Source of the DNA: Candidatus Binatia bacterium
GTDB lineage: Bacteria; Eisenbacteria; RBG-16-71-46; SZUA-252
Length of the DNA stretch: 64,000 nt
NCBI GenBank assembly: GCA_035631035.1
Contig: DASQJL010000096.1
Coordinates: 1,234-65,233 of the forward strand
Reading direction: 5' to 3'
The notes beneath the pieces are model-generated. The model searched no databases and had not been told where the DNA came from. It saw only the letters and a list, made by a program, of their open reading frames with translations. Positions 3,298 to 14,925 of the stretch are shown here, one piece after another (position 1 is the first letter of the stretch; each line of letters opens with the position of its first letter). The position numbers and the translations under genes were made by a program.

Positions 3298-4635
3298 CTA
3301 GTTGGCCGGTTGGAGCCGGAATGTCGAGCAGCCCGCCTTTCCGATGAAGGCGCCGATCGGACCACACGGCGCGCGAAGCGCGGGCGACAGGTCGCGGAGG
3401 GCGAAGTTGCCGTGCTCCGCGTCGCAGAAGAGCGGGTCCCCGACCCACGTGTTGACGGAGGGGAGCGCGCCGATGGCCCCTCCGGACGGATCCCAGATGA
3501 GGTTGCAGTCATATCGAGGAGACGTCTGCAGCCCCGTCACGGCGCGCTGACCATGATCCACCACAAAGATGTTTTTGCGCACCTCGGGAGAGACGTCGGT
3601 GAAGAAGAGGGTGGCGCCGTCTCCCTTGACCCTGTTCACGAAGAACGTGTTGCTCTGAAGCACCGGATTGACGTTGTTCATGCCGCGCCCGGCAATCCCC
3701 ATCGCCGCGGAGGCCGAGAGCGCCGAATTCTGGTTGAAGAGGCAGAGTCCCACGTTCATGCGCGAGTGATCGCACTGGATCGCGCCGGCCGTTCCGGCCT
3801 GATTCCTCTCGAACGTCGACCGCGAGACGTTGAACTCCGAGCCGCCCGCGATGCCCATCGCGCCTCCCGCCACGTCGGAGCTGTTCTCCTTGAAGGAGCA
3901 GCTCACGACGGTTCCCTGGCTCGAATCCTCGGCGGCGACGGCGCCGCCGATGGAACCGACCGCCCGGTTCCGCTCGAACACGAGGTTGCGGAGGGGGATG
4001 AGGAGCCGCGTATGGCTGAGCGAGATCGCGCCCCCTTCGTGCCCCTCGTTGTCGTAGAACTTCGATTCGAAGACACCCACCACCGAGTTGTTGGCGTCGA
4101 TGGCGCTCCCCTTGTTCTCCCGCAGGGTGCAATTGCCGATGGCGACCCCTTGCGAGTCCCAGATGGAGACGGCCGACTCCCAGTTGCCCGTGAAGACGCA
4201 GTTGGAAATCTGCACCATGCTGTCGCGAAGGCAGTAGATGCCGCCGCCGCTGTTCGAGTGGCCTCGCCGGATCGTGAAGCCCACGATGCTCATGCCGGTG
4301 ACCCCCTCGACATGCAGGACCCGAACGCTGTCCCTGCCGTCGAGCGTGGTCTTCTCGGCGCCCCCCAATGCGTAGAGCACGATCTTCTTCCTTACGGTGA
4401 ACGGCCCCCGGTAGACGCCGGGAGCGACCCAGACCGTGTCACCCGGCGCCGCCGCGTCGATCGCCGCCTGCAGCGTCTTGTGCTGGCGGGGAACGGGGCG
4501 TCGCTTGGCCGGGGCGTGGCGCGGCGCGGCGGCCGTCAGAACGAGCGCGAGCAGAAGGAGCACGGCGAGCGCGGTCGCGCTCGAGGCGCGGCTCTGGCGG
4601 CGGAGCGGATGCGTCGCACGGCGCCTAAGGGCCAA
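3298..4635 (-). CDS. Right-handed parallel beta-helix repeat protein (NosD/pectate-lyase-like), secreted
   Basis: Signal-like ALAVLLLLALVLTAAAP. Repeated N/G/S-rich beta-helix rungs (GNCTLRENKGSAIDANNSVVG...). Confidence 0.75.
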   Translation of the reverse strand: MALRRRATHPLRRQSRASSATALAVLLLLALVLTAAAPRHAPAKRRPVPRQHKTLQAAIDAAAPGDTVWVAPGVYRGPFTVRKKIVLYALGGAEKTTLDGRDSVRVLHVEGVTGMSIVGFTIRRGHSNSGGGIYCLRDSMVQISNCVFTGNWESAVSIWDSQGVAIGNCTLRENKGSAIDANNSVVGVFESKFYDNEGHEGGAISLSHTRLLIPLRNLVFERNRAVGSIGGAVAAEDSSQGTVVSCSFKENSSDVAGGAMGIAGGSEFNVSRSTFERNQAGTAGAIQCDHSRMNVGLCLFNQNSALSASAAMGIAGRGMNNVNPVLQSNTFFVNRVKGDGATLFFTDVSPEVRKNIFVVDHGQRAVTGLQTSPRYDCNLIWDPSGGAIGALPSVNTWVGDPLFCDAEHGNFALRDLSPALRAPCGPIGAFIGKAGCSTFRLQPAN

Positions 4636-7489
4636 CCGCGCTCCCCGGGGCCGTGACCGACCCCGCCACCACCAGGGCGTAGCCGGAGGCGGGGCGCAGG
4701 TAGGCGCGCGCCGCCGCGGCGGCCGCCTCGCGCGTCACGCCGCGCACGATCGAAGTGTAGCGCTCGATGTAGTCCAGCCCCAATCCATAGACCTCCGCCG
4801 CCACCAGCTGCGAGGCGACGCCGGCGTTGGTCTCGAGACGAACCGGGAACACCCCGGTCAGATAATCCTTCGCGTCCTCCATCTCCGCGTCGGTCGGCCC
4901 CTGCTCCGCCATGCGGCGCACCTGCTCGAGGATGCTCGCGACCGCCCGGTCGGCGTTCGCGGGATTCGTCCCGGCGCGGATCGAGAGCGGCCCCGCGCCG
5001 ATGCCGGCCGCGAACGAGGAATAGACCCCGTACACCAGCCCCTGCTCGTCGCGCAGGCTGTTCATGAGCCGGCTGGAGAGCGAGCCCCCGCCGAGGATGT
5101 AGTTCATCACCATCGCCGCGTCGTAGTCGGGCGCGGTGCGGGGAATGCCGGGCACCGCGTAGACGACGTCGGTCTGCGATTTTCCCCTCATCGGCACGCG
5201 CAGCTCGAGCGTCGTCGCCGGGGCCGCCGCCTTCGGAACCTGGAACGGCGGCACCGGATCGAGCTTGGCCCATCCGCCGAAGGCGGCCCGCACCAGCTCC
5301 AGCGCGCGCTTGGGATCGACGTCGCCGACCAGGACCAGGATCGTGTTGTTGGGGCCGTAGTGGCTTCGGTGGAACGACGCCAGATCCTCGCGCGTGATCG
5401 CGCGGAGCGTGCTGTCGGTGCCCATCGGGTTCACGTGGTAGGGGTGCCCCTCGGGATACAGGAGGCCGTTCGCCCGGCGCGCCGCCACGCTGGCCGTCGA
5501 ATTCTCGGCGACCTGGTAGTCGGTGATCCGCTCCGCGCGGATCTTCTCCATCTTGTCCGCGGGGAAGGCGGGGTGCTGGAGGGCGTCGGCGAGCACGTCG
5601 AGCACCGTCGGGAGATCAGCGGAGAGCATCGTGGCCGAGATCGAAACCGTCTCGGACCCGCCGTCGAACGAGAGGTGGGCGCCCGCGCCCTCGATCGTCT
5701 CGGCGGTCTGGAGCGCCGTGCGCTTCGCCGTGCCCTGATCCAGCATCGCGGCGGTGAATCCGGCCAGCCCGCTCCGATCCGGCGGATCGTAGATGCCGCC
5801 CGCCTTGACGAGGCCCTGGAGGGAGATGGTCGGATTCGCCGGGTTGTTCCGCACGATCAGCGTGAGCCCGTTGGGGAGAACCGTGCGGTCGGGAGCCGCC
5901 CCGTGCATCACGCCGGCCGGCATGGCGGCCGCGCCCGGAGCGGCCGCACCCGTCCCACGCTCGTCCCGAGCCGCGGAGGCGGGAAGGCCGGGGAGCGCGC
6001 CGGCCGCCTCGTCGGGTCGGTAGTGGTCGACCCACCGCGAGGGGCCCGCCGCTCCGGCCGCCTCGGCGGGAGCGCCGTTCCCGGCCTCGGCCTGGTCTTC
6101 CGGCGTCGGGTCGTACCAGCCCACCGTGCGCGAGTTCTCCGTGAGATAGGTGCGCGCCACCCGCATCAGGTCCTCGGCGGTGACCGCGCGGACCCGCTCC
6201 ACATAGGTGTCCAGATAGCGCCAGGAAGCCACGGTGTTGTAGTACCCCAGCTGCTGCGCCAGGCTCCGGATCGAATCCTTGGAGTAGATGAACGAGGCCT
6301 CGACCTGCTTCTTCGCCCGCGCGAGCTCCTGGGGCGTGACCGGCTGGGTCTTGAGCCGATCGACCTCGGCGAGGAGTCCCGCTTCCAGGCGGTCCAGCTC
6401 GACCCCGGGCGCCGCCGTCGCCTGCGCGTTGAAGAGGAGCGGGTCGTGGCCGTTGTCGTTGCTCGCGTCCACCTCGGCCGCGAGCTTCTTCTCCACCAGC
6501 GCCTGGTAGAGGCGCGAGGTCTGGCCGTGGCCCAGGATGATCCCGAGCACGTCGAGGGCGTAGGTGTCGGGATGCGTCACCGCGGGATTTCTCCAGGCCA
6601 CGAGCAGGTAGCGGGTGTCGCCCGGCTTCCGGATCTTGAAGCGGCGCTCACCCATCTGCGGCGGCTCCACCGTGGTGACCGGCGGCGGCTCGGTTCCCTT
6701 CGGGACCGCTCCGAAGTACCGCTTCACCATCGCGAGGGCGGCCGGCGCGCTCACGTCGCCGACGACCACGACCGTCGCGTTGTTCGGCATGTAGTGGCTC
6801 TTGTAGTAGTCGCGGATCTGCTCCGTGCGGATCTGCTCGACGTCGGTGCGCCAGCCGATGGTGGGCCAGTGGTAGGGGTGCGCCTTGAAGGCCTGCGCCA
6901 TCGCTTCGAGATAGAGGGCGCGATGCGGATTGTCCTCGTTCCGCTCCAGCTCGGAGCGGACGACGGTCATCTCCAGGCGGTGCTCCTCGTCGGGGATCGT
7001 CGCGTGAATCATGCGGTCCGCCTCGATCTTCATCGCCATCTCCAGGCGGTCGCTCGCAAGGACCTCGAAGTAGGTCGTGTAGTCGAGCGACGTGCCCGCG
7101 TTGAACGTGGCGCCGTTCTTCTGGAGCAGCCGGGAGATCTCCCCCTTGCCGTAGGTGGGCGTCCCCTTGAACATCATGTGCTCGAGCAGATGGGAGATGC
7201 CGGTGATGCCGGCGCTCTCGTTCCGGGAGCCGACCTTGTACCAGACCATGAAGGCCGCCACCGGCGCCGTGTGAACCTCCTGGATCAACACCGTGAGCCC
7301 GTTGTCGAGGGTCGTCTCGAGCACGGGCGACTTCGCCGCTGGGGCTGTCATGGAACGTTTCCCTTTAGAAGTGGCGCCGGCGGAAGCCGGCGGTGCCTGG
7401 ATCGCCGTGAATGCGAGCAGGGAGAGGAGAAGTCCCGCTCCGCAAAGCCGTGGTGTGGCGCTCGGTCGAACGTTCGAAACCTGCCGCAT
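4625..7489 (-). CDS. M16 (pitrilysin) family zinc peptidase with two tandem M16 units
   Basis: HxxEH zinc motif (HLLEHMMFKG) in the first unit and a second M16-like unit. The start is placed at MRQVSN..., which has a signal peptide and a GGAGGA SD. The upstream 389 codons of the ORF-track entry are Arg/Gly-rich antisense read-through. Confidence 0.8.
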   Translation of the reverse strand: MRQVSNVRPSATPRLCGAGLLLSLLAFTAIQAPPASAGATSKGKRSMTAPAAKSPVLETTLDNGLTVLIQEVHTAPVAAFMVWYKVGSRNESAGITGISHLLEHMMFKGTPTYGKGEISRLLQKNGATFNAGTSLDYTTYFEVLASDRLEMAMKIEADRMIHATIPDEEHRLEMTVVRSELERNEDNPHRALYLEAMAQAFKAHPYHWPTIGWRTDVEQIRTEQIRDYYKSHYMPNNATVVVVGDVSAPAALAMVKRYFGAVPKGTEPPPVTTVEPPQMGERRFKIRKPGDTRYLLVAWRNPAVTHPDTYALDVLGIILGHGQTSRLYQALVEKKLAAEVDASNDNGHDPLLFNAQATAAPGVELDRLEAGLLAEVDRLKTQPVTPQELARAKKQVEASFIYSKDSIRSLAQQLGYYNTVASWRYLDTYVERVRAVTAEDLMRVARTYLTENSRTVGWYDPTPEDQAEAGNGAPAEAAGAAGPSRWVDHYRPDEAAGALPGLPASAARDERGTGAAAPGAAAMPAGVMHGAAPDRTVLPNGLTLIVRNNPANPTISLQGLVKAGGIYDPPDRSGLAGFTAAMLDQGTAKRTALQTAETIEGAGAHLSFDGGSETVSISATMLSADLPTVLDVLADALQHPAFPADKMEKIRAERITDYQVAENSTASVAARRANGLLYPEGHPYHVNPMGTDSTLRAITREDLASFHRSHYGPNNTILVLVGDVDPKRALELVRAAFGGWAKLDPVPPFQVPKAAAPATTLELRVPMRGKSQTDVVYAVPGIPRTAPDYDAAMVMNYILGGGSLSSRLMNSLRDEQGLVYGVYSSFAAGIGAGPLSIRAGTNPANADRAVASILEQVRRMAEQGPTDAEMEDAKDYLTGVFPVRLETNAGVASQLVAAEVYGLGLDYIERYTSIVRGVTREAAAAAARAYLRPASGYALVVAGSVTAPGSAVGP

Positions 7490-7548
7490 TCCATCCTCCC
7501 GGGCGCCGCAGCGCTCAAGCGTAGCATGGGACGGCGCCGCCGCGGGCA

Positions 7549-8967
7549 TCAGACCCGCGCCAGCGCCGCGACGCACTCGATGTGCGCGGTGTGCGGAAAC
7601 ATGTCGACCGGCCGGACCCACGAGAGCCGATACCGTTCTTCGCAGAAGAGCGCGAGATCGCGCCCCAGGGTCGCCGGGTTGCACGAGACGTAGACGAGGC
7701 GCGGCGCGCCCATCTCGATCAGCCGCCGCGCCACGGCGGGATGGAGTCCCGCGCGCGGGGGGTCGACGAGCACCGCGTCCGGGGAGCCGCGCTCCTCGCG
7801 CAGCGCTTCGGCGGCTTCCGCCCGCACGAACCGGACGTTTTCGATCCCGTTCCGTTCGGCGTTTCGCCGCGCGTCGCGCACCGCCGCCTCGGAGGACTCG
7901 ATGCCGACCGCTTCCCGGGCACGGCGCGCGATCGGCAGCGTGAAGGTGCCGGTCCCCGAATAGACGTCGAGCACCCGCTCGTCGCCGCGAAGCTCCAGCC
8001 CCTCCATCGCGGTTTCCAGCAGGCGCTCCCCCTGTTCGGTGTTGGTCTGGAAGAAGGAGGCGGAGGAGATCTCGAAGACGAGATCCCCCAGGCGCTCCTC
8101 GATGCGGTCCCGCCCGGCAAGCACGCGCTCCTCCTCGCCCACCGCGATCTGCGCTTTCCGCCGCGTCAGGTTCAGCACGACGCTGGCGATCGACGGGAAG
8201 CCGGCGGTGATCCGCTCGGCGAATCCCGCGAAGGAGGGGTGCGGCGCCGAGGCGACCAGATTCACCATGACCTGCCCCGTACGGATCCCCTCGCGCACGG
8301 CGAGGAATCGGAGGAGTCCCGTGTGGCGGCGCGTGTCGTAGGGCTCGAGCCCTTCGGAGCGCGCCCAGGCGCGGGTCTCCGCGACGATCTCGCTCGCGAC
8401 CGGCCGGGCGATGTGGCAGCGGCCGAGGTCGAAGCTCCGGTCGAAGAACCCGCGGCGATGCAGCCCCAGCGTGAGCGCGCCGGAGGCGTCGCTGCCGAAG
8501 GAGAACTCCATCTTGTTCCGGTAGTGGAAGCGCTCCGGCGCCGGGACCACGGGGCGCACGGCGGCCGTGAGGCCCCCCAGGTGGGCGAGGCACTCCTCCA
8601 CCTGCCGCTCCTTGTGGCGGAGCTGCTCCGCGTAGTCGAGGTCCTGGAAGCGGCACCCGCCGCAGATCGGCACGTGCTCGCAGCGCGGCGTCACGCGCGC
8701 GGGGGAAGGACGGAGGACCGCCTCGGCCCGCGCCTCGGCGTACTGGCGCTTTCGGCGGAAGACGGTGGCGGCGACGCGGTCCCCCGGCAGCGCGTTCTCG
8801 ACGAAGATCACGAAACCGTCCACCTTCGCGAGCGCCGCTCCTCCGAAGGCGAGCCCGGTCACCTCCAGCTCCAGCCGGTCGCCTCGCCGGACGGTCGCGG
8901 CGGGGCTCGGGCGGGGGCCGGAATCGGCGAATTCCTGTGCCGGGACGGGATCGACTTCGGGGGTCAC
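7549..8967 (-). CDS. rlmD: 23S rRNA (uracil-C5)-methyltransferase RlmD/RumA family (TRAM + 4Fe-4S + SAM MTase)
   Basis: TRAM-like RRGDRLELEVTGLAFGG. Cys cluster CEHVPICGGCRFQ. MTase motifs LDVYSGTGTF and DPPRAG. The start codon (GTG at 8967 or 8991) is uncertain. The upstream part of the 747-aa ORF is antisense of the cupredoxin gene. Confidence 0.8.
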   Translation of the reverse strand: MTPEVDPVPAQEFADSGPRPSPAATVRRGDRLELEVTGLAFGGAALAKVDGFVIFVENALPGDRVAATVFRRKRQYAEARAEAVLRPSPARVTPRCEHVPICGGCRFQDLDYAEQLRHKERQVEECLAHLGGLTAAVRPVVPAPERFHYRNKMEFSFGSDASGALTLGLHRRGFFDRSFDLGRCHIARPVASEIVAETRAWARSEGLEPYDTRRHTGLLRFLAVREGIRTGQVMVNLVASAPHPSFAGFAERITAGFPSIASVVLNLTRRKAQIAVGEEERVLAGRDRIEERLGDLVFEISSASFFQTNTEQGERLLETAMEGLELRGDERVLDVYSGTGTFTLPIARRAREAVGIESSEAAVRDARRNAERNGIENVRFVRAEAAEALREERGSPDAVLVDPPRAGLHPAVARRLIEMGAPRLVYVSCNPATLGRDLALFCEERYRLSWVRPVDMFPHTAHIECVAALARV

Positions 8968-9066: not shown

Positions 9067-9747
9067 ATGCCAATTCTCCCCCGCCGGACCGCCGCCGCGG
9101 CGCTCCTCCTGGTCCTCGGCTCGGCCTCTCTCGGGCGCGCGGCCACCATCGAGGGCGCCGTGACCCTGACGCCGGCCGATCTCTCCTTCCGCGGCGGGAT
9201 GAAGCCGGGCGCCTACATCGGGCAGCTCAGCGGAAGCATGGCGCGGATGGGAACGTCCGATCCGTCCGATACGACCTACGGCGTCGCCTATCTCGCCGAC
9301 CTCGCCGACACCGCCGGGATCTCGACGAGCCCGGCGCTCCTCGACCAGAAGGGGCAGCGGTTCATCCCGCGGATCCTCGCGGTCGTGGCGGGGCAGGCGG
9401 TGGATTTCCGGAACAGCGACAACATCTTCCACAACGTGTTCTCCTATTCGCCTCCCAAGAAGTTCGACCTTGGCCGTTATCCGCGCGGAAGGTCGAAGCG
9501 GCTGACGTTCCAGAAGCCGGGGCTGGTGCAGGTCTACTGCGACATCCACTCCGACATGCGCGCCGACATCGTCGTCGCGCCCAGCCGCCGGTTCGGCTAC
9601 GTGGACGCCCTGGGGCGGTTCCGCATCGAGGATGTTCCGGAAGGGAAGCACACCGTCGTCGTCTGGCTGCCCCGGCGCGGCGAGCGGAGCAGCGACGTCG
9701 ACGTGCCCGCGAACGGGACCGCCGCCCTGGCGATCGGGGCCGAGTGA
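9067..9747 (+). CDS. Periplasmic cupredoxin-like (type-1 copper fold) protein
   Basis: AGGAG SD, ATG and signal peptide MPILPRRTAAAALLLVLGSASLG. Blue-copper ligand pattern HNVFSY ... YCDIHSDM (Cys-x2-His-x2-Met). Its stop overlaps the start region of the kinase. Confidence 0.6.
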   Translation: MPILPRRTAAAALLLVLGSASLGRAATIEGAVTLTPADLSFRGGMKPGAYIGQLSGSMARMGTSDPSDTTYGVAYLADLADTAGISTSPALLDQKGQRFIPRILAVVAGQAVDFRNSDNIFHNVFSYSPPKKFDLGRYPRGRSKRLTFQKPGLVQVYCDIHSDMRADIVVAPSRRFGYVDALGRFRIEDVPEGKHTVVVWLPRRGERSSDVDVPANGTAALAIGAE

Positions 9748-9764
9748 GCGGAGGCGTTGCCGGA

Positions 9765-11612
9765 ATGAACGTCGACGCCCCGGGCGTGACACCGCGACCG
9801 CGGATCTCGCTGCTCCTCAAGATCACCGTCCTCACCTCCCTTCCGATTCTCGGCATCATGATGGCCGCGCTCCTCCTCGTGAACCATCGCCTGGCGGGAG
9901 AGGTGAACCGGAACGTGGCCGCCGACCTCCAGCGCGCCGCGCTCGCCTTCGAGAACCAGATGGAGCGGGAGGGGGAGAACCTCGAGCGCGTCGGCGTGGT
10001 CGTGGCGCGCGATCCCAAGTTCTTCGCGCTCCTCACGCTTCCGCGCGGAGACCGGAAGGACGCCGACTTCCAGGCCACGCTGCTCGGCGTGGCGCGGGAC
10101 TTCCAGCACGACGCCGAGGCGCCGCTCTTCGACGTGACCGACGAGCACGGGACACTGCTCGCGAGGGCCGGGCAGGGCGACGATGCCGCCGGCAGAGCTC
10201 CCGGCGCGGGCGCCGACCGGTCCCGATGGCCGCTGGTGCGCGAGGCGCTGGCGGGGCGCGCCGCGCGGGGATATCTGGTGGAAGGGGAGCGCGCCTACCG
10301 CGTGGCCGTGGTCCCCATCGTCGTGGATGGCGCGCTCGCTGGCACGCTGACCCTGGGGCGCACCATCGACGCCGCGCTGGCCGAGCGCCTCAAGGCGACC
10401 ACGCGCAGCGACGTGGTCTTCGTCGTGAACGGAACCGCCTCGATCCGCACGACGCTCCGGAGCTCCCTGGCCGGGCGGCTCGCCGCGCTTCCCCAGAGCC
10501 CGGGCGTGGTCCAGGTGGCCGACGGCGAGCATCGCTTCCTCGCGCTCGCCGGCCGGCTGGAAGGGCCGACCGCCGGCGGACGTGTCGGCTTCGCGCTCCT
10601 TCGGTCCCTGGACCAGGAGACCGCGGTCCTCGGACGCGTGGGCCGCGAGCTCACGATCGCGGGCGCGGCGCTCATCGTGGTCGCCCTCCTCGTCGGCATT
10701 CTCGTCTCGACCGGCGTGACGCGGCCCGTCCGGCGGATCGTCGAGGCCGCGAACGCGATGCGCGGCGGAAACTACGACCTTCCCCTCGACATCCGGTCGG
10801 CCGACGAGATGGGGACGCTGGCCGCCCATTTCGAGGCGATGCGCGCGGCGCAGCGCCACGAGATCGAGCGCCTCGAGGAGATCGACCGCATGAAGTCCGA
10901 CTTCATCGCGATCGCCTCCCACGAGATCCTGACCCCGGTCACCACGATCCGGGCGTTCGCCGACCTCATGGGCGAGGGGGCCGCCGCGAACGACACCGAG
11001 CTGCAGCGGGAAGGGTTCCGGGCGATCCGCGAGGCCGCGGGGTCGCTGACGCGGCTGGCGCGCGACCTCACGAACATGTCGCTGATCGACCGCAAGCGCC
11101 TTCCGCTCCGGCTCGCTTCCGCCGACCTGGGCCTCGTCGCCGAGGAGGTGGCGGTGCGGACCATCGCGCTCGCCGCCGAGCGGCGCCAGGCCGTCTCCCT
11201 GTCGATCGAGCCCGAGCTGCTCCATCCCCGCGTGGACGCGGACTACCTGAGGCAGGCGCTGACCAACATCGCCCAGAACGCCGTGCGCTTCACGCGCGAC
11301 GGCGGCTCGATCGAGATCGGTGCCCGCCGGAACGGCGCGGCCATCGAGATCTACGTCGCCGACTCGGGCATCGGGATCTCGAAGGACGACTTCGAGCGCA
11401 TCTTCTCGAAGATCGTGGAGCTGAAGGACGTGAACCTGCACTCCTCGGGAACGACGGAGTTCAACTCCTCGGGACTCGGCCTGGGCCTCTCCATCGCCCG
11501 CGGCATCGTGGAAGCGCACGGCGGCGAGATCCGGGTGGAAAGCGAGCTGGGGCGCGGGAGCACGTTCACGATCTCGATTCCGGCCGAGGGATCGCTGGAC
11601 CAGGCCGCATAG
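9765..11612 (+). CDS. Sensor histidine kinase (two TM segments, large periplasmic domain, HAMP, HisKA, HATPase_c)
   Basis: H-box SHEILTP. N-, G1- and G2-boxes (NAVRFT, DSGIGI, GLGLGLSI). ATG at 9765 with GGAGG SD. No response regulator is adjacent. Confidence 0.85.
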   Translation: MNVDAPGVTPRPRISLLLKITVLTSLPILGIMMAALLLVNHRLAGEVNRNVAADLQRAALAFENQMEREGENLERVGVVVARDPKFFALLTLPRGDRKDADFQATLLGVARDFQHDAEAPLFDVTDEHGTLLARAGQGDDAAGRAPGAGADRSRWPLVREALAGRAARGYLVEGERAYRVAVVPIVVDGALAGTLTLGRTIDAALAERLKATTRSDVVFVVNGTASIRTTLRSSLAGRLAALPQSPGVVQVADGEHRFLALAGRLEGPTAGGRVGFALLRSLDQETAVLGRVGRELTIAGAALIVVALLVGILVSTGVTRPVRRIVEAANAMRGGNYDLPLDIRSADEMGTLAAHFEAMRAAQRHEIERLEEIDRMKSDFIAIASHEILTPVTTIRAFADLMGEGAAANDTELQREGFRAIREAAGSLTRLARDLTNMSLIDRKRLPLRLASADLGLVAEEVAVRTIALAAERRQAVSLSIEPELLHPRVDADYLRQALTNIAQNAVRFTRDGGSIEIGARRNGAAIEIYVADSGIGISKDDFERIFSKIVELKDVNLHSSGTTEFNSSGLGLGLSIARGIVEAHGGEIRVESELGRGSTFTISIPAEGSLDQAA

Positions 11613-11752
11613 GTCAACCGGCCAAGACAGATGTCGTAAATTCTAGACTACACGCCTAATCCGCTGCACTTCCGCAAGATAACGAATCGCTCCCCGAATC
11701 GTCAATTACAGGCGACAGATCCTGGTCCGTAGAGGTACCCGGGGATCTCGTT

Positions 11753-11782
11753 TTGCATGCTCGGCATGTGCCTGGCATATAG
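11753..11782 (+). promoter_or_regulatory. Possible sigma70-like promoter (TTGCAT ... TATAGC) in the AT-rich kinase-lon spacer
   Basis: Weak match only, in the only low-GC stretch of this part of the window. Confidence 0.2.
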
Positions 11783-11791
11783 CAAGTTGTA

Positions 11792-11826
11792 GCCCCAATT
11801 CGACGGGGCCGTGCAAATGGCACGGC
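11792..11826 (+). promoter_or_regulatory. Two adjacent perfect hairpins (GCCCC-8nt-GGGGC and GCCGTGC-aaatg-GCACGGC)
   Basis: Seen in sequence upstream of the tandem small ORFs. Function unknown (structured leader or processing site). Confidence 0.3.
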
Positions 11827-11909
11827 GGCTGCTCAAGCATGTCTCCGTCGAGGCACTCGCAGACCGCGAGCGACGCAAACCGAAAACCCAAACCAACATG
11901 GGGTGTGAG

Positions 11910-11981
11910 ATGGAAGCTCTCCTTCTGATCGCGTTCGTGATTTCGATGTTCGGTGACGGCGGCGGCAAGGCCGGCTGGTAA
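11910..11981 (+). CDS. Small ORF 1, 23 aa: MEALLLIAFVISMFGDGGGKAGW
   Basis: ATG preceded by GGGGTG. Paralogue of ORF 2, sharing identical LLLIAF and GGKAGW* segments encoded with synonymous differences. A GC hairpin follows it. Confidence 0.5.
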   Translation: MEALLLIAFVISMFGDGGGKAGW

Positions 11982-12044
11982 GCAGCTCGATCCCAAGCGC
12001 AGCTCCAACGCAGCGGACCCCAACCCAAGAGAGGAGGTGGAACA

Positions 12045-12116
12045 GTGGCAACTCTCCTTCTGATCGCTTTCATCGTGGCGCTCGGAAACACGGACGGAGG
12101 TAAGGCAGGTTGGTAA
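12045..12116 (+). CDS. Small ORF 2, 23 aa: (M/V)ATLLLIAFIVALGNTDGGKAGW
   Basis: GTG start with a strong SD (GAGGAGGTG) 7 nt upstream. Its C-terminus is identical to ORF 1 at the amino-acid level but with 4 synonymous codon changes. A hairpin AGCGCCGC-aacgt-AGCGGCGC follows it. Confidence 0.5.
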   Translation: MATLLLIAFIVALGNTDGGKAGW

Positions 12117-12378
12117 GCGGTAGCGCCGCAACGTAGCGGCGCCGTCCGCAGGGAAGGGCGAACCCCTGTGGGCGCTTGAGCGGACCGATGGGCCATCGGA
12201 AGTAGCCCCCCTGGTGGCCCGTCGTTTCGCGTTCGGTGGCGGAATGGAATCCAGGGGGGCGGCTGGCCAGCGGCGGGGGCGTATGATACCGTGGCCGGTC
12301 GTCTCCCAGCCACCGAACACGCACCGCGAAAAAGGGGCGCCGCCGTTGAGCAAACGTACCGCAGCCGAAATCGGGCTG

Positions 12379-14925
12379 ATGCTGCAATGCGATGTCCCCT
12401 CCGAAATTCCGGTGCTCCCTCTCATGAGCACCATCGTCTTTCCCCTCGGCGTCACCTCCATCCAGGTCCGGATCGAGCAGTCCAAAGCCCTCCTTCGCGA
12501 CCACTCCGACCCCGACACGCTCGTGGCCCTGGTCTACAGCCCGGCCAAGCGGGAGGAGGAGATCCGGCCGGAAGACCTGAGCCGGGTGGGACTCTCGGCC
12601 CGGGTCATTCGCATTCTCAACCTCCCCGGCGGAAACGTGCAGGTGACGCTGGAGGGATTGCGCCGGGTCGCCGTCGAGGAGTTCCTGCGCGTGGAGCCCT
12701 ACCTGGTCGCCCGAGTCACCTGCCCCGAGGAGCCGGTCCGGGACCCCGAGCAGGTGCACACCCTGATCCAGCGCATCCTGAAAGCGCTGCGGACTCTGTC
12801 TCAGGTGGACTCGGGCTACCCGGCCGAGCTGGACAACATCTTCAGCATGAACCTGGGAGACCCCGGGCTCTTCGCCGACACCGTTGCCTCGATCGTCCGC
12901 TTCCCGCTCGAGACCAAGAAGCGGGTGATCGAGGCGCTCGATGTCCAGGAGCGCCTCTCCCTGGTGGCCGAGGCGATCGACTCCGAGATCGCGCGCCTGA
13001 GCGTGGCCGAGGACGTCGTCCGGCGCACCAGCGCCCAGATGGAGAAGACCCAACGCGAGTTCTTCCTCCGCCAGCAGCTGATGGAGATCCGCCGGCTCCT
13101 GGGCGAGGACGACCCCCAGGAGATGCTGGTCCGCCAGATCCTGGACCGTTCGGACAGCCTGGCGCTCCCCTCCCACGTGCGGTCGGTGGTCCAGGAAGAG
13201 GCGAGCCGTCTCCGCCTCCTGCCTCCCACCGCGCAGGAGTCGGGAGTGATCCGGAACTACGTCGAGTGGGTCCTGTCGCTCCCCTGGACGCGCGACAAGC
13301 CGCACGACATCCGGCTGGAGGACGTGCAGCGCCGGTTGAACGAGGAGCACTTCGGCCTGGAGAAGGTGAAGGAGCGGATCCTCGAGTACTTATCCGTCCT
13401 CAAGCTGAAGAACGACATGCACGGTCCCATCCTCTGCTTCGCGGGACCCCCCGGCACCGGCAAGACCTCCCTCGGCGCCTCGATCGCGCGCGCGATGGGG
13501 CGCTCGTTCGTGCGGATGAGCGTGGGCGGCGTGCGCGATGAGGCCGAGATCCGCGGGCACCGGCGCACCTACGTCGGATCCCGCCCCGGGAAGATCCTCC
13601 GATCCCTTCGCGACGCGCGCTCCTCCAGCCCCGTGTTCATGATCGACGAGATCGACAAGCTGGGGCACGACTCCGACGGCGACCCCGCGTCGGCGCTGCT
13701 CGAGGTGCTGGACCCGGAGCAGAACCAGCACTTCGTGGACCACTTCATCGAGATCCCCTTCGACCTCTCCGATGTCCTCTTCATCACGACGGCCAACGTG
13801 CTCGACTTCATCCCCGGCGCCCTCCTCGACCGGTTGGAAGTGATCACCATCCCCGGCTACATGGAGGAGGAGAAGCTGGAGATCGCGCGGCGCCACCTGG
13901 TGCCCCGGGAATCGAAGGAGCATGGGCTGGCCGCGACCGACATCGCTTTCGACGACGCGGCGCTGATCAAGATCATCCGCGAGTACACGCGCGAGGCGGG
14001 CGTGCGGCAGCTGGAGCGCGCCATCGACACCTTCTGCCGCAAGGCGGCGCGGCAGCGCACGACCGGGTACACCGGCGACTGGCGCTTCTCGGTCGCGGAC
14101 GTCGAGCCGATCCTGGGCCCTCCCTACATCGTTCCCGACGTGGCGGAGGGGCACGCCGAGGTGGGCGTGGCCACCGGCCTCGCCTGGACGGCGACCGGTG
14201 GAGACCTGCTCCTCATCGAGGCGCTCAAGATGCGCGGCGCCGGGCGCGTCATCGTGACCGGACAGCTCGGCGACGTGATGAAAGAGTCGGTGCAGGCCGC
14301 CCACTCCTACGTTCGCGCGCGCGCGGAGCTGCTCGGGATCAACCCGCAGCTGTTCGACGACTACGATCTCCACATCCATTTCCCGGAGGGAGCGGTTCCC
14401 AAGGACGGTCCCTCGGCTGGGATCACGATCGTGATGGCGATCGCTTCGGCGCTGGCCGAGGCGCCGATCCGAAACGACGTGGCGATGACGGGAGAGGTGA
14501 CCCTCCGCGGCAAGGTGCTCGCCGTGGGCGGACTCAAGGAAAAGGTCATGGCCGCCTATCGCGCGGGGATCAAGACGGTCGTCTTCCCCGCGGACAATCA
14601 GAAGGACCTGGTCGAGATTCCCGAGTCGATCCGCTCCAAGCTCACCTTCGTCGCGGTGAGCACCGTGGACGAAGTCTTCCAGCACGCTTTCGCCGGCGTG
14701 GCCGAGCGGATCGCCCAGCTCGAGGCGCGGCGCAAGGCGCGCGAGGCGCTCAAGGCGAGGAAGGGGAAGGCGGCGAAGGAGAAGGCGGCGCGGCGGAGCA
14801 ACGGCAAGGCTCCGCGACGCGCGCGCCTCCCCAAGGCTGCGGGCGCCACGCAGGACGGCAAGCCGGCGCGCGGTAAGAACGGCCGGAACGGACCGGCGTC
14901 GCGCCCGCCTCATCGTTCCCGGTAG
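12379..14925 (+). CDS. lon: ATP-dependent Lon protease (LonA) with an unusual Lys/Arg/Ala-rich C-terminal tail of about 65 aa
   Basis: N-terminal [14 protein letters not shown]. Walker [10 protein letters not shown]. Catalytic Ser-Lys ([14 protein letters not shown]). The start could alternatively be the upstream TTG at 12348. Confidence 0.9.

Follow-up and report, generated by a model that had tools for sequence, protein, structure and literature searches.

Two tandem ORFs between a sensor kinase gene and lon

What, if anything, is encoded in the spacer between a sensor histidine kinase gene and lon on contig DASQJL010000096.1, from which a stretch of 64,000 nucleotides (nt), here called the window, was analyzed? 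An earlier note on this DNA had pointed to two tandem short open reading frames (ORFs) in that spacer and had proposed that they are translated, selected paralogues and not a non-coding repeat. The translations of both ORFs (ORF1 and ORF2; Table 1) are exactly as that note gave them, each a hydrophobic peptide of 23 residues that ends GGKAGW-stop, and the five third-position synonymous differences that it listed between them (GCG/GCT, GGC/GGA, GGC/GGT, GCC/GCA, and GGC/GGT) are all present. Based on the comparisons described below, we consider it highly likely that the pair is a two-gene micropeptide unit that is conserved and translated and that has a sigma-54-type promoter of its own and a terminator-like end.

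The two ORFs are offset by 135 nt, and with the copies aligned at this offset, identity over the whole unit is 47%. The matches are concentrated in both ends of the ORFs and are only scattered in the flanks, such that similarity stops at the ORF borders. The locus lies in an AT-rich island, as had been claimed, with a GC content of 0.54 to 0.62 across 11600-12100 versus 0.65 to 0.78 on either side. The strong Shine-Dalgarno sequence reported for ORF2 was also found (GAGGAGGTG), and GGAGGTG or a near variant stands ahead of the second ORF in 16 of 16 aligned loci; the Shine-Dalgarno columns of ORF1 are invariant or nearly so in an alignment of 42 leader sequences. Each ORF had been said to be followed by its own GC hairpin, which holds for ORF2 but not for ORF1, where the window carries a direct repeat instead (GCAGCTCGATCCCA / GCAGCTCCAACGCA). 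The spacer after ORF1 is unconserved among the aligned loci and is followed by the strong GGAGGTG and then by ORF2.

Recurrence of the peptide pair

The peptide family was sampled by three independent routes: a pattern scan, protein profile and hidden Markov model (HMM) searches, and a metagenome scan seeded with the upstream sensor. The pattern scan, conducted with one genome per species, gave 17 matches, 13 of which were real, and all 13 had two tandem ORFs; the other matches (L006, L008, L010, and L012) were without a hydrophobic ORF and were rejected as chance. A profile search of 5.8 billion proteins, for which the first row of the alignment was extended N-terminally, returned 35 matches, and an exhaustive HMM search of 1.84 billion cluster representatives returned 31, all of them in the GKAGW peptide family in both cases. 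Members in the protein databases were mostly called from spurious upstream starts and none is named. The seed of the metagenome scan was the N-terminal dCache_3 domain of the sensor only, and peptide information was not used. That scan found 49 loci, and the peptides were present in 31 of the 33 that had at least ~400 nt downstream of the sensor; the two loci without peptides had the most distant sensors (37% and 32% identity). The peptide-pair pattern is far beyond chance, as it recurs in 31 of 33 loci located via the sensor alone. Moreover, the order of sensor kinase gene, two small ORFs ending GGKAGW-stop, and lon was found in four of four loci that were anchored on lon. The total sample comprises 44 distinct pairs and 87 ORFs of 19 to 28 amino acids (median, 23), and an 18-amino-acid member without any linker occurs among the protein-search matches.

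Most of the closest relatives of the window's lon, at 73 to 93% identity, belong to Candidatus Eisenbacteria metagenome-assembled genomes or to soil metagenomes. The public labels conflict: the contig matching the window is labeled "Candidatus Binatia bacterium" by NCBI (protein P0130), and across the window's record and four other contigs with the peptide locus (L007, L016, L019, and L021) the labels are Omnitrophota, Thermoanaerobaculia, Bacteroidota, Limnocylindrales, or Binatia. Lon from L007, L019, and L021 is 87 to 98% identical to the window's Lon, as in Eisenbacteria genomes (the L016 contig is too short for this comparison), which suggests that the conflicting phylum labels of these three contigs result from mis-binning or mislabeling. 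Because of this identity, the lineage is treated here as Eisenbacteria-like despite the labels. We conclude that the peptide unit is specific to Eisenbacteria-like soil bacteria.

Signatures of translation and selection

The frame, start codon, Shine-Dalgarno site, and stop are intact in 87 of 87 ORFs, and the C-terminal GKAGW is invariant across all of them. That invariance is partly due to ascertainment, as the detection pattern demanded K-A-G-W; no peptide criterion was applied to the sensor-anchored set. The Gly codon that precedes the invariant Lys lies outside the detection pattern and varies at the third position only, as do the K-A-G codons, and the codons used in the tail are GGC/GGA/GGT/GGG, AAG/AAA, GCC/GCT/GCA/GCG, and GGC/GGT. 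In the hydrophobic part, the conserved position is a T at the second codon position. All insertions and deletions are in frame and variation has a three-base period. Directly after the stop, column entropy jumps to ~1.8 bits, and conservation ends there.

Comparison of the two copies within one genome gave proportions of synonymous and nonsynonymous differences (pS and pN) of 0.44 and 0.10, respectively, for a pN/pS of 0.24. In L001, L013, and L068, the two copies are identical as peptides and yet are 3 to 6 synonymous changes apart, and the flanks of the two copies are only ~30% identical. Together, these values argue that the copies are not recent duplicates and that selection acts on the protein. 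The proposal that the ORFs are translated paralogous genes under selection, made in the earlier note from two copies, is strongly supported by the comparison of many, in that every ORF is intact, variation in the tail is synonymous, and conservation ends at the stop.

The stop codons themselves are constrained. Among the 87 ORFs, 73 end with TAA, 14 with TAG, and none with TGA, and a G directly follows the stop in 68. The window's sixteen long ORFs with high GC at third codon positions use TAG and TGA equally and never TAA. The restriction of the peptide genes to TAA and TAG points to selection for efficient, non-leaky termination, which would guard an exact free C terminus. One metagenomic protein, P0168, reads MELIHLIAIFVSLADTGGCKAGWKAYESEIAGEQIT, with no stop after the Trp and with Cys in place of the Gly that precedes the Lys. 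P0168 may be a pseudogene or a sequencing error; it represents a naturally occurring variant with an extended C terminus.

Properties of the peptides

The mean Kyte-Doolittle hydropathy of residues 3 to 14 has a median of 2.9, and the apolar run is 10 to 19 residues long. Lys or Arg besides the invariant Lys occurs in only 1 of 87 peptides, and residue 2 is mostly Ala or Glu. Between the apolar run and the tail lies a variable linker of 0 to 10 residues that comes in two classes, one rich in Gly (...FGDGGGKAGW) and one rich in Pro (...TLPPPGGKAGW). The Lys is not always preceded by GG, as PPPGKAGW and SLGKAGW occur. Within the Pro-rich class, the two positions differ in sequence consistently across genomes, which argues that both copies are old and maintained. 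The earlier description of the products as small membrane peptides agrees with their hydropathy, and they have the single hydrophobic helix and the length of 50 amino acids or less expected of small membrane modulators. The positive-inside rule suggests an orientation with the N terminus out and the C terminus in, which would place GKAGW at the cytoplasmic face.

No match to the peptides was found in Pfam, NCBIfam, PHROGs, or PADLOC at E values up to 10, and one weak PDB sequence match was judged to be chance. The only matches among the 1.84 billion representative proteins were unannotated or mis-started members of the same family. A scan of 11000-13000 against Rfam, also at E values up to 10, gave only chance microRNA and small RNA matches, and a full-text search of a literature library for GGKAGW or GKAGW returned only a degenerate primer and an unrelated word.

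A sigma-54-type promoter upstream of ORF1

The consensus for sigma-54 promoters is TGGCACG-N4-TTGCW, with GG at -24, GC at -12, and exact spacing between them. A sequence of this type is found upstream of ORF1 in the window, the core of which (TGGCACGGCGGCTGCT at 11818-11833) departs from the consensus once, with a C for a T. The motif TGCAAATGGCAYGNCGRCTGCT was present in 43 of 43 distinct loci reaching that point, 50 to 89 nt 5' of the assigned ORF1 start, and keeps the GG-N10-GC spacing of the consensus. Moreover, TGGCAYN5YTGCW has a single match in the 64 kb when both strands are searched, where 0.06 are expected. Transcription would start near 11844. A promoter scan found no sigma-70-like site on the plus strand, and a literature search found nothing that links Eisenbacteria with sigma-54. 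Sigma-54 promoters need an enhancer-binding activator, the site of which is expected ~80 to 150 bp upstream, and are silent without one, and expression of the peptide unit is therefore presumably conditional.

The promoter was absent from the earlier note, which had placed two perfect hairpins upstream of the ORFs. The second of these (11808-11826) overlaps the -24 element TGGCAC (11818-11823) and is a hairpin in only some loci. An imperfect dyad farther upstream is, with low confidence, a candidate activator site; related dyads (TGTCGTCA-N5-TGACGACA) occur at about -130 in a subset of loci, and their positional conservation is weak. Two other elements were noted in the stretch of lower GC that separates the sensor stop codon from the promoter: a direct repeat, CGAATCG-N5-CGAATCG, at 11683-11701, and a GCA-N4-GCA motif (11748-11758), ~60 to 70 bp 5' of the promoter, that recurs in many loci. 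Either could be a binding site for an activator or for IHF. Downstream of the promoter, the leader of many loci carries a hairpin; it also has a C/A-rich stretch and a GAGGTG that hardly varies. Over all 42 5' leaders, RNAalifold returned no consensus structure, so support for the leader hairpin is only moderate.

In public records, ORF1 is annotated as part of a hypothetical protein of 52 to 75 amino acids that starts at an ATG inside the -24 element (window 11817-11981, P0130, NCBI locus tag VE326_10085), and ORF2 is mostly unannotated. The annotated 54-amino-acid reading (MARRLL..., P0130) was rejected, as its ATG lies inside the -24 element and its frame is open in only 10 of 43 loci. Because the long frame is so rarely open, we take the short ORF1 to be the real gene.

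The 3' end of the unit and its relation to lon

The anatomy of the unit was taken from a 16-locus alignment and then from larger alignments. Three hairpins follow ORF2 (H1, H2, and H3; Table 1). The top of H2 does not vary among the first 15 aligned loci and varies little (GGGCGAAC[CT]CC) in the larger set. Six loci lack the H2 motif: L068, L052 (a cut contig), and the four that form the clade of L025, L071, L073, and L077. H2 is for that reason regarded as an accessory feature. The terminator-like H3 was found in 41 of 41 aligned loci with 98.7% of cells paired, and in the family it takes the form of a long stem, GGGCCAYCRG/CYKGRTGGCCY, with TTCGWTTTT after it. Other loci have a stronger T run than the window, where the run is weak and a simple terminator scan left H3 unflagged. 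Across the 3' structures of 41 sequences, 96.4% of cells pair versus 40 to 52% when the partners are slid. A pairing of the C-rich H3 loop with a downstream G run (10/10 in the window) was dropped, as it showed no covariation in L013, L014, and L020. The global structure of the window transcript is not significant (z = -0.21). Through its 3' hairpins, the RNA may also have a second function.

The gene lon starts at 12346 with TTG, and the earlier note had raised the possibility that the peptides serve as a leader for it. Between H3 and lon lies a second conserved block that ends GT(A/G)TGATACCGTGG, and an 11-mer from this block was found directly 5' of lon where positions were checked. The gene is not directly downstream of the pair in L011 (where it is ~6 kb on), in L018, or in L016 (a short contig with L028-type peptides), and in L028 the distance from the pair to lon is ~4.5 kb, with other genes in between. 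The related promoter-like motifs GGGGTGTATGATCA and GGCGTGTATCATGG stand ahead of the displaced lon in L011 (7441-7455) and L028 (7266-7280), and where lon is displaced the peptide unit still directly follows the sensor gene. The conserved block looks like lon's own promoter. It is unlike the standard sigma-70 or sigma-32 consensus. No antiterminator pairing that would compete with H3 was seen in the window by eye, and no formal test was run. Because lon has its own promoter-like block, with a terminator-like hairpin ahead of it, and because 4.5 to 6 kb of genes intervene in several lineages, the pair does not appear to be a lon leader, and we conclude that such a role is unlikely. Two other features of lon were noted in the window: its leader has long-range complementarity of 12223-12240 with 12309-12326, and the encoded Lon ends in a Lys/Arg-rich tail of ~70 residues beyond the protease domain (14700-14925).

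The dCache_3 sensor and its neighbors

The pair follows a dCache_3 sensor gene in every locus that carries it. Most lineages have a histidine kinase here. At least three clades have a pseudokinase instead, in which the phospho-accepting His is replaced by Glu (L013 and L020), Lys (L028), or Gln (L025, L071, and L073). In the alignment, the ATP-binding G boxes are also gone from the sensors of L025 and L028. By this comparison, the sensor has repeatedly become a pseudokinase while the neighboring gene order stayed.

Farther upstream, an ORF of 226 amino acids (~9067-9747) overlaps the sensor start; it has no Pfam match above threshold and a weakly CarboxypepD_reg-like C terminus, and it is conserved in many loci and absent from the L025 lineage. 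The products encoded 3 to 10 kb upstream (4625-8656 on the minus strand; 680-5535 in L023) include a double M16 (insulinase-type) peptidase fusion, a PDZ-domain protein, and a D-Ala-D-Ala carboxypeptidase. M16 pairs and PDZ proteins can process or bind peptide C termini.

Table 1. Features of the peptide unit and its surroundings, in window coordinates
Feature	Position	Strand	Description
Upstream sensor gene	9744-11612	+	dCache_3-HAMP-HisKA-HATPase histidine kinase; Pfam domains assigned on the identical gene of the source contig
Candidate upstream activator site	11699-11717		Imperfect dyad TCGTCA-N7-GCGACA, ~100-120 bp 5' of the promoter
Sigma-54-type (-24/-12) promoter	11812-11833	+	TGCAAATGGCACGGCGGCTGCT
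5' leader hairpin	11856-11870	+	CTCGC-N5-GCGAG; in many loci, with CCCGC/GCGGG variants seen by eye
ORF1 Shine-Dalgarno	11900-11905	+	GGGGTG, 4 nt before ATG; family consensus GAGGTG
ORF1	11910-11981	+	ATG start; peptide MEALLLIAFVISMFGDGGGKAGW; stop TAA
ORF2 Shine-Dalgarno	12031-12039	+	GAGGAGGTG, 5 nt before GTG
ORF2	12045-12116	+	GTG start; peptide (M/V)-ATLLLIAFIVALGNTDGGKAGW; stop TAA
H1	12123-12142	+	GCGCCGC-N6-GCGGCGC, starts 6 nt after the ORF2 stop; sequence varies between loci
H2	12143-12174	+	Lower stem covaries; top AGGGCGAACCCCT at 12155-12167
H3, terminator-like	12186-12232	+	CGATGGGCCATCGG ... CCTGGTGGCCCGTCG, then a T-rich stretch
lon promoter-like block	12254-12296	+	GGGGGGCGGCTGGCC...GTATGATACCGTGG; boundary marker outside the unit

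Discussion

We favor, with slightly less than even confidence, a reading in which the two genes encode inducible small membrane peptides that dock via their invariant tail onto a conserved membrane partner. The genes form a self-contained unit of ~390 nt whose sigma-54-type promoter is presumably on only under particular conditions, and the dependence on sigma-54 and an activator is probable. Two paralogous peptides of 18 to 28 residues would be made, each from its own ribosome-binding site, and the unit would end at a hairpin and the terminator-like stem. Each product consists of one very hydrophobic helix with no basic residue at its N terminus, a Gly- or Pro-rich linker, and GKAGW with a free Trp carboxylate. 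Both peptides are likely to insert in the cytoplasmic membrane, and the invariant tail would bind a conserved membrane partner at the membrane surface. The best candidate for that partner may be the upstream dCache_3/HAMP sensor, the output of which would be modulated as MgrB and SafA modulate PhoQ; we regard this choice of partner as doubtful. Less likely again, the pair and the dCache_3 sensor, whether kinase or pseudokinase, might be an undescribed signaling module in which the GKAGW tail is a co-receptor or ligand, either processed or membrane anchored, with a sigma-54 feedback loop and with the 3' hairpins perhaps as an RNA-level output.

Several observations weigh against docking onto a membrane partner or against parts of that model. 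The apolar run is often only 10 to 14 residues, which is short for a membrane-spanning helix. Neither the window nor 592 kb of related loci yielded a gene for rpoN or for an enhancer-binding protein, or an RpoN-box or GAFTGA motif. The promoter and peptides are unchanged in the pseudokinase lineages, and circuits in which the kinase activates the promoter, or in which the peptides tune the kinase, are therefore unlikely to be the whole story. Adjacency to the sensor is also weak evidence of a functional link, since gene order is conserved clade-wide. Finally, the host organisms are uncultured.

Other readings differ in what they make of the tail and of the RNA. The peptides might be induced by stress and act on the membrane itself, in the style of a type I toxin, of delta-haemolysin or a phenol-soluble modulin, or of a holin, with tight sigma-54 control in place of an antitoxin, and we consider this unlikely. 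A promoter that is silent without its activator would suit such a product; the size, extreme hydrophobicity, and tandem duplication resemble the Ibs, Ldr, and Zor toxins; and a ~390-nt unit with a structured 3' part beside a sensor kinase gene recalls Staphylococcus aureus RNAIII, which encodes delta-haemolysin. Generic membrane damage, however, needs no invariant five-residue C terminus, which together with purely synonymous variation across the clade suggests specific recognition. The earlier suggestion of a type I toxin-like role is possible, but no conserved antisense promoter or terminator was found, the spacers are unconserved, both ribosome-binding sites look accessible and not sequestered in the structurally unremarkable window transcript, and an invariant C-terminal motif is unusual for such toxins. 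It is still less probable that the peptides are precursors of an exported signal, in parallel with SHP, ComS, and Phr, in which the hydrophobic part would be removed and (G)KAGW sensed by the periplasmic dCache_3 domain. The basic N-terminal region typical of export signals is absent, no exporter gene was found next to the pair, the tail shows no pherotype diversification and the GG before the Lys is not fixed, and the pair is kept where the sensor is a pseudokinase. Those points stand against a C terminus that alone is invariant while the remainder need only be hydrophobic, a length of 18 to 28 residues and a position beside a sensor gene that resemble SHP and ComS, and non-leaky TAA or TAG stops that fit a critical free C terminus. 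Class IIb two-peptide bacteriocins, double-glycine leaders, and ComX-type pheromones with a prenylated Trp were set aside, as the peptides have no leader, their GG is not fixed, and neither a transporter nor a modifying enzyme is encoded next to the pair.

The same C terminus and stop could instead reflect a constraint of the ribosome. Were the ORFs cis-acting leaders or arrest peptides, their translation, or a stall at GKAGW-stop, would govern how the downstream RNA folds, whether transcription terminates at H3, or how lon is expressed, and the last five residues are indeed invariant, as in arrest peptides of the SecM/TnaC type, in a constrained stop context with TAA or TAG followed mostly by G. 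The hairpins begin 6 nt after the ORF2 stop, and the tail bears a loose resemblance to the SecM arrest motif GIRAGP. We nevertheless find this reading very improbable: lon has its own conserved promoter-like block and is separated from the pair by genes in L011, L016, L018, and L028; neither a conserved alternative downstream structure nor, by eye in the window, a competitor of H3 was found; and an arrest peptide needs neither hydrophobicity selected along its whole length with a variable linker nor a second copy. Least credible is a duplicated non-coding RNA or DNA element in which the open frames are incidental, for which the shortness of the ORFs is the sole point. The three-base periodicity, the in-frame insertions and deletions, the 87 intact ORFs, the pN/pS of 0.24, and the conservation that ends exactly at the stop all oppose it, and we conclude that the comparison effectively refutes the non-coding reading.

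Small membrane proteins that modulate sensor kinases include SamT (PMC13425233). The GKAGW peptides resemble SamT, MgrB, SafA, and UgtL (which act on PhoQ), and MzrA (EnvZ) in being very short, hydrophobic, and single-helix, in their inducible expression (a prediction here), and in having a gene beside a membrane sensor. They differ from all of these in having no sequence similarity to them, and the known proteins are 30 to 65 amino acids long and single-copy. Here there are always two copies of 18 to 28 amino acids with an invariant GKAGW and a sigma-54-type promoter, and the sensor, to which the link is one of adjacency only, is sometimes a pseudokinase. The type I toxins Ibs, Ldr, ShoB, TisB, and Zor are likewise hydrophobic, 18 to 35 amino acids long, often tandem, and usually unannotated, but their promoters are SOS-controlled or constitutive and not of the sigma-54 type, and in the GKAGW pair no antisense RNA element was found and there is an invariant C-terminal motif under clade-wide purifying selection. 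Dual-function RNAs such as RNAIII/delta-haemolysin, SgrS/SgrT, and SR1/SR1P share a transcript of a few hundred nucleotides, a small peptide, conserved 3' hairpins, and a location beside a sensor kinase locus. In contrast to that type, H2 is absent from one clade in which the peptides persist, and the two ORFs make up about one-third of the RNA. SHP (with Rgg) and ComS (with ComR) are also unannotated hydrophobic ORFs of 17 to 25 amino acids with a conserved functional C-terminal part, encoded beside the cognate sensor gene, yet the basic N terminus, cytoplasmic receptors, and pherotype variation of those precursors are not seen in the GKAGW pair. Finally, the arrangement of a sigma-54 promoter, a product with a hydrophobic N-terminal helix, and an adjacent sensor kinase gene is like that of PilS-PilR, sigma-54, and pilA, a circuit in which the sensor gauges how much of the product the membrane contains; unlike pilin, the peptides have no prepilin peptidase site or pilin domain, and no response regulator gene is adjacent. 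Of the functionally nearest known kinds (small membrane modulators of sensor kinases, type I toxins, dual-function RNAs, and short hydrophobic pheromone precursors), each has at least one defining feature that is lacking here or lies outside sequence analysis, and by this comparison the GKAGW peptides are a new family of bacterial small hydrophobic proteins.

The analysis corrects the public annotation, which misses the peptide genes or starts ORF1 within its own promoter. It adds a well-supported family, from a candidate phylum without a cultured member, to the few bacterial micropeptides whose translation and selection have very strong comparative support. The family shows a rare combination of obligate two copies, an invariant C-terminal pentapeptide, a constrained stop, a sigma-54-type promoter, and stable linkage to a sensor that has turned into a pseudokinase more than once. 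As the peptides are short enough to be synthesized and the promoter and sensor are defined, the system could be tested in a heterologous host.

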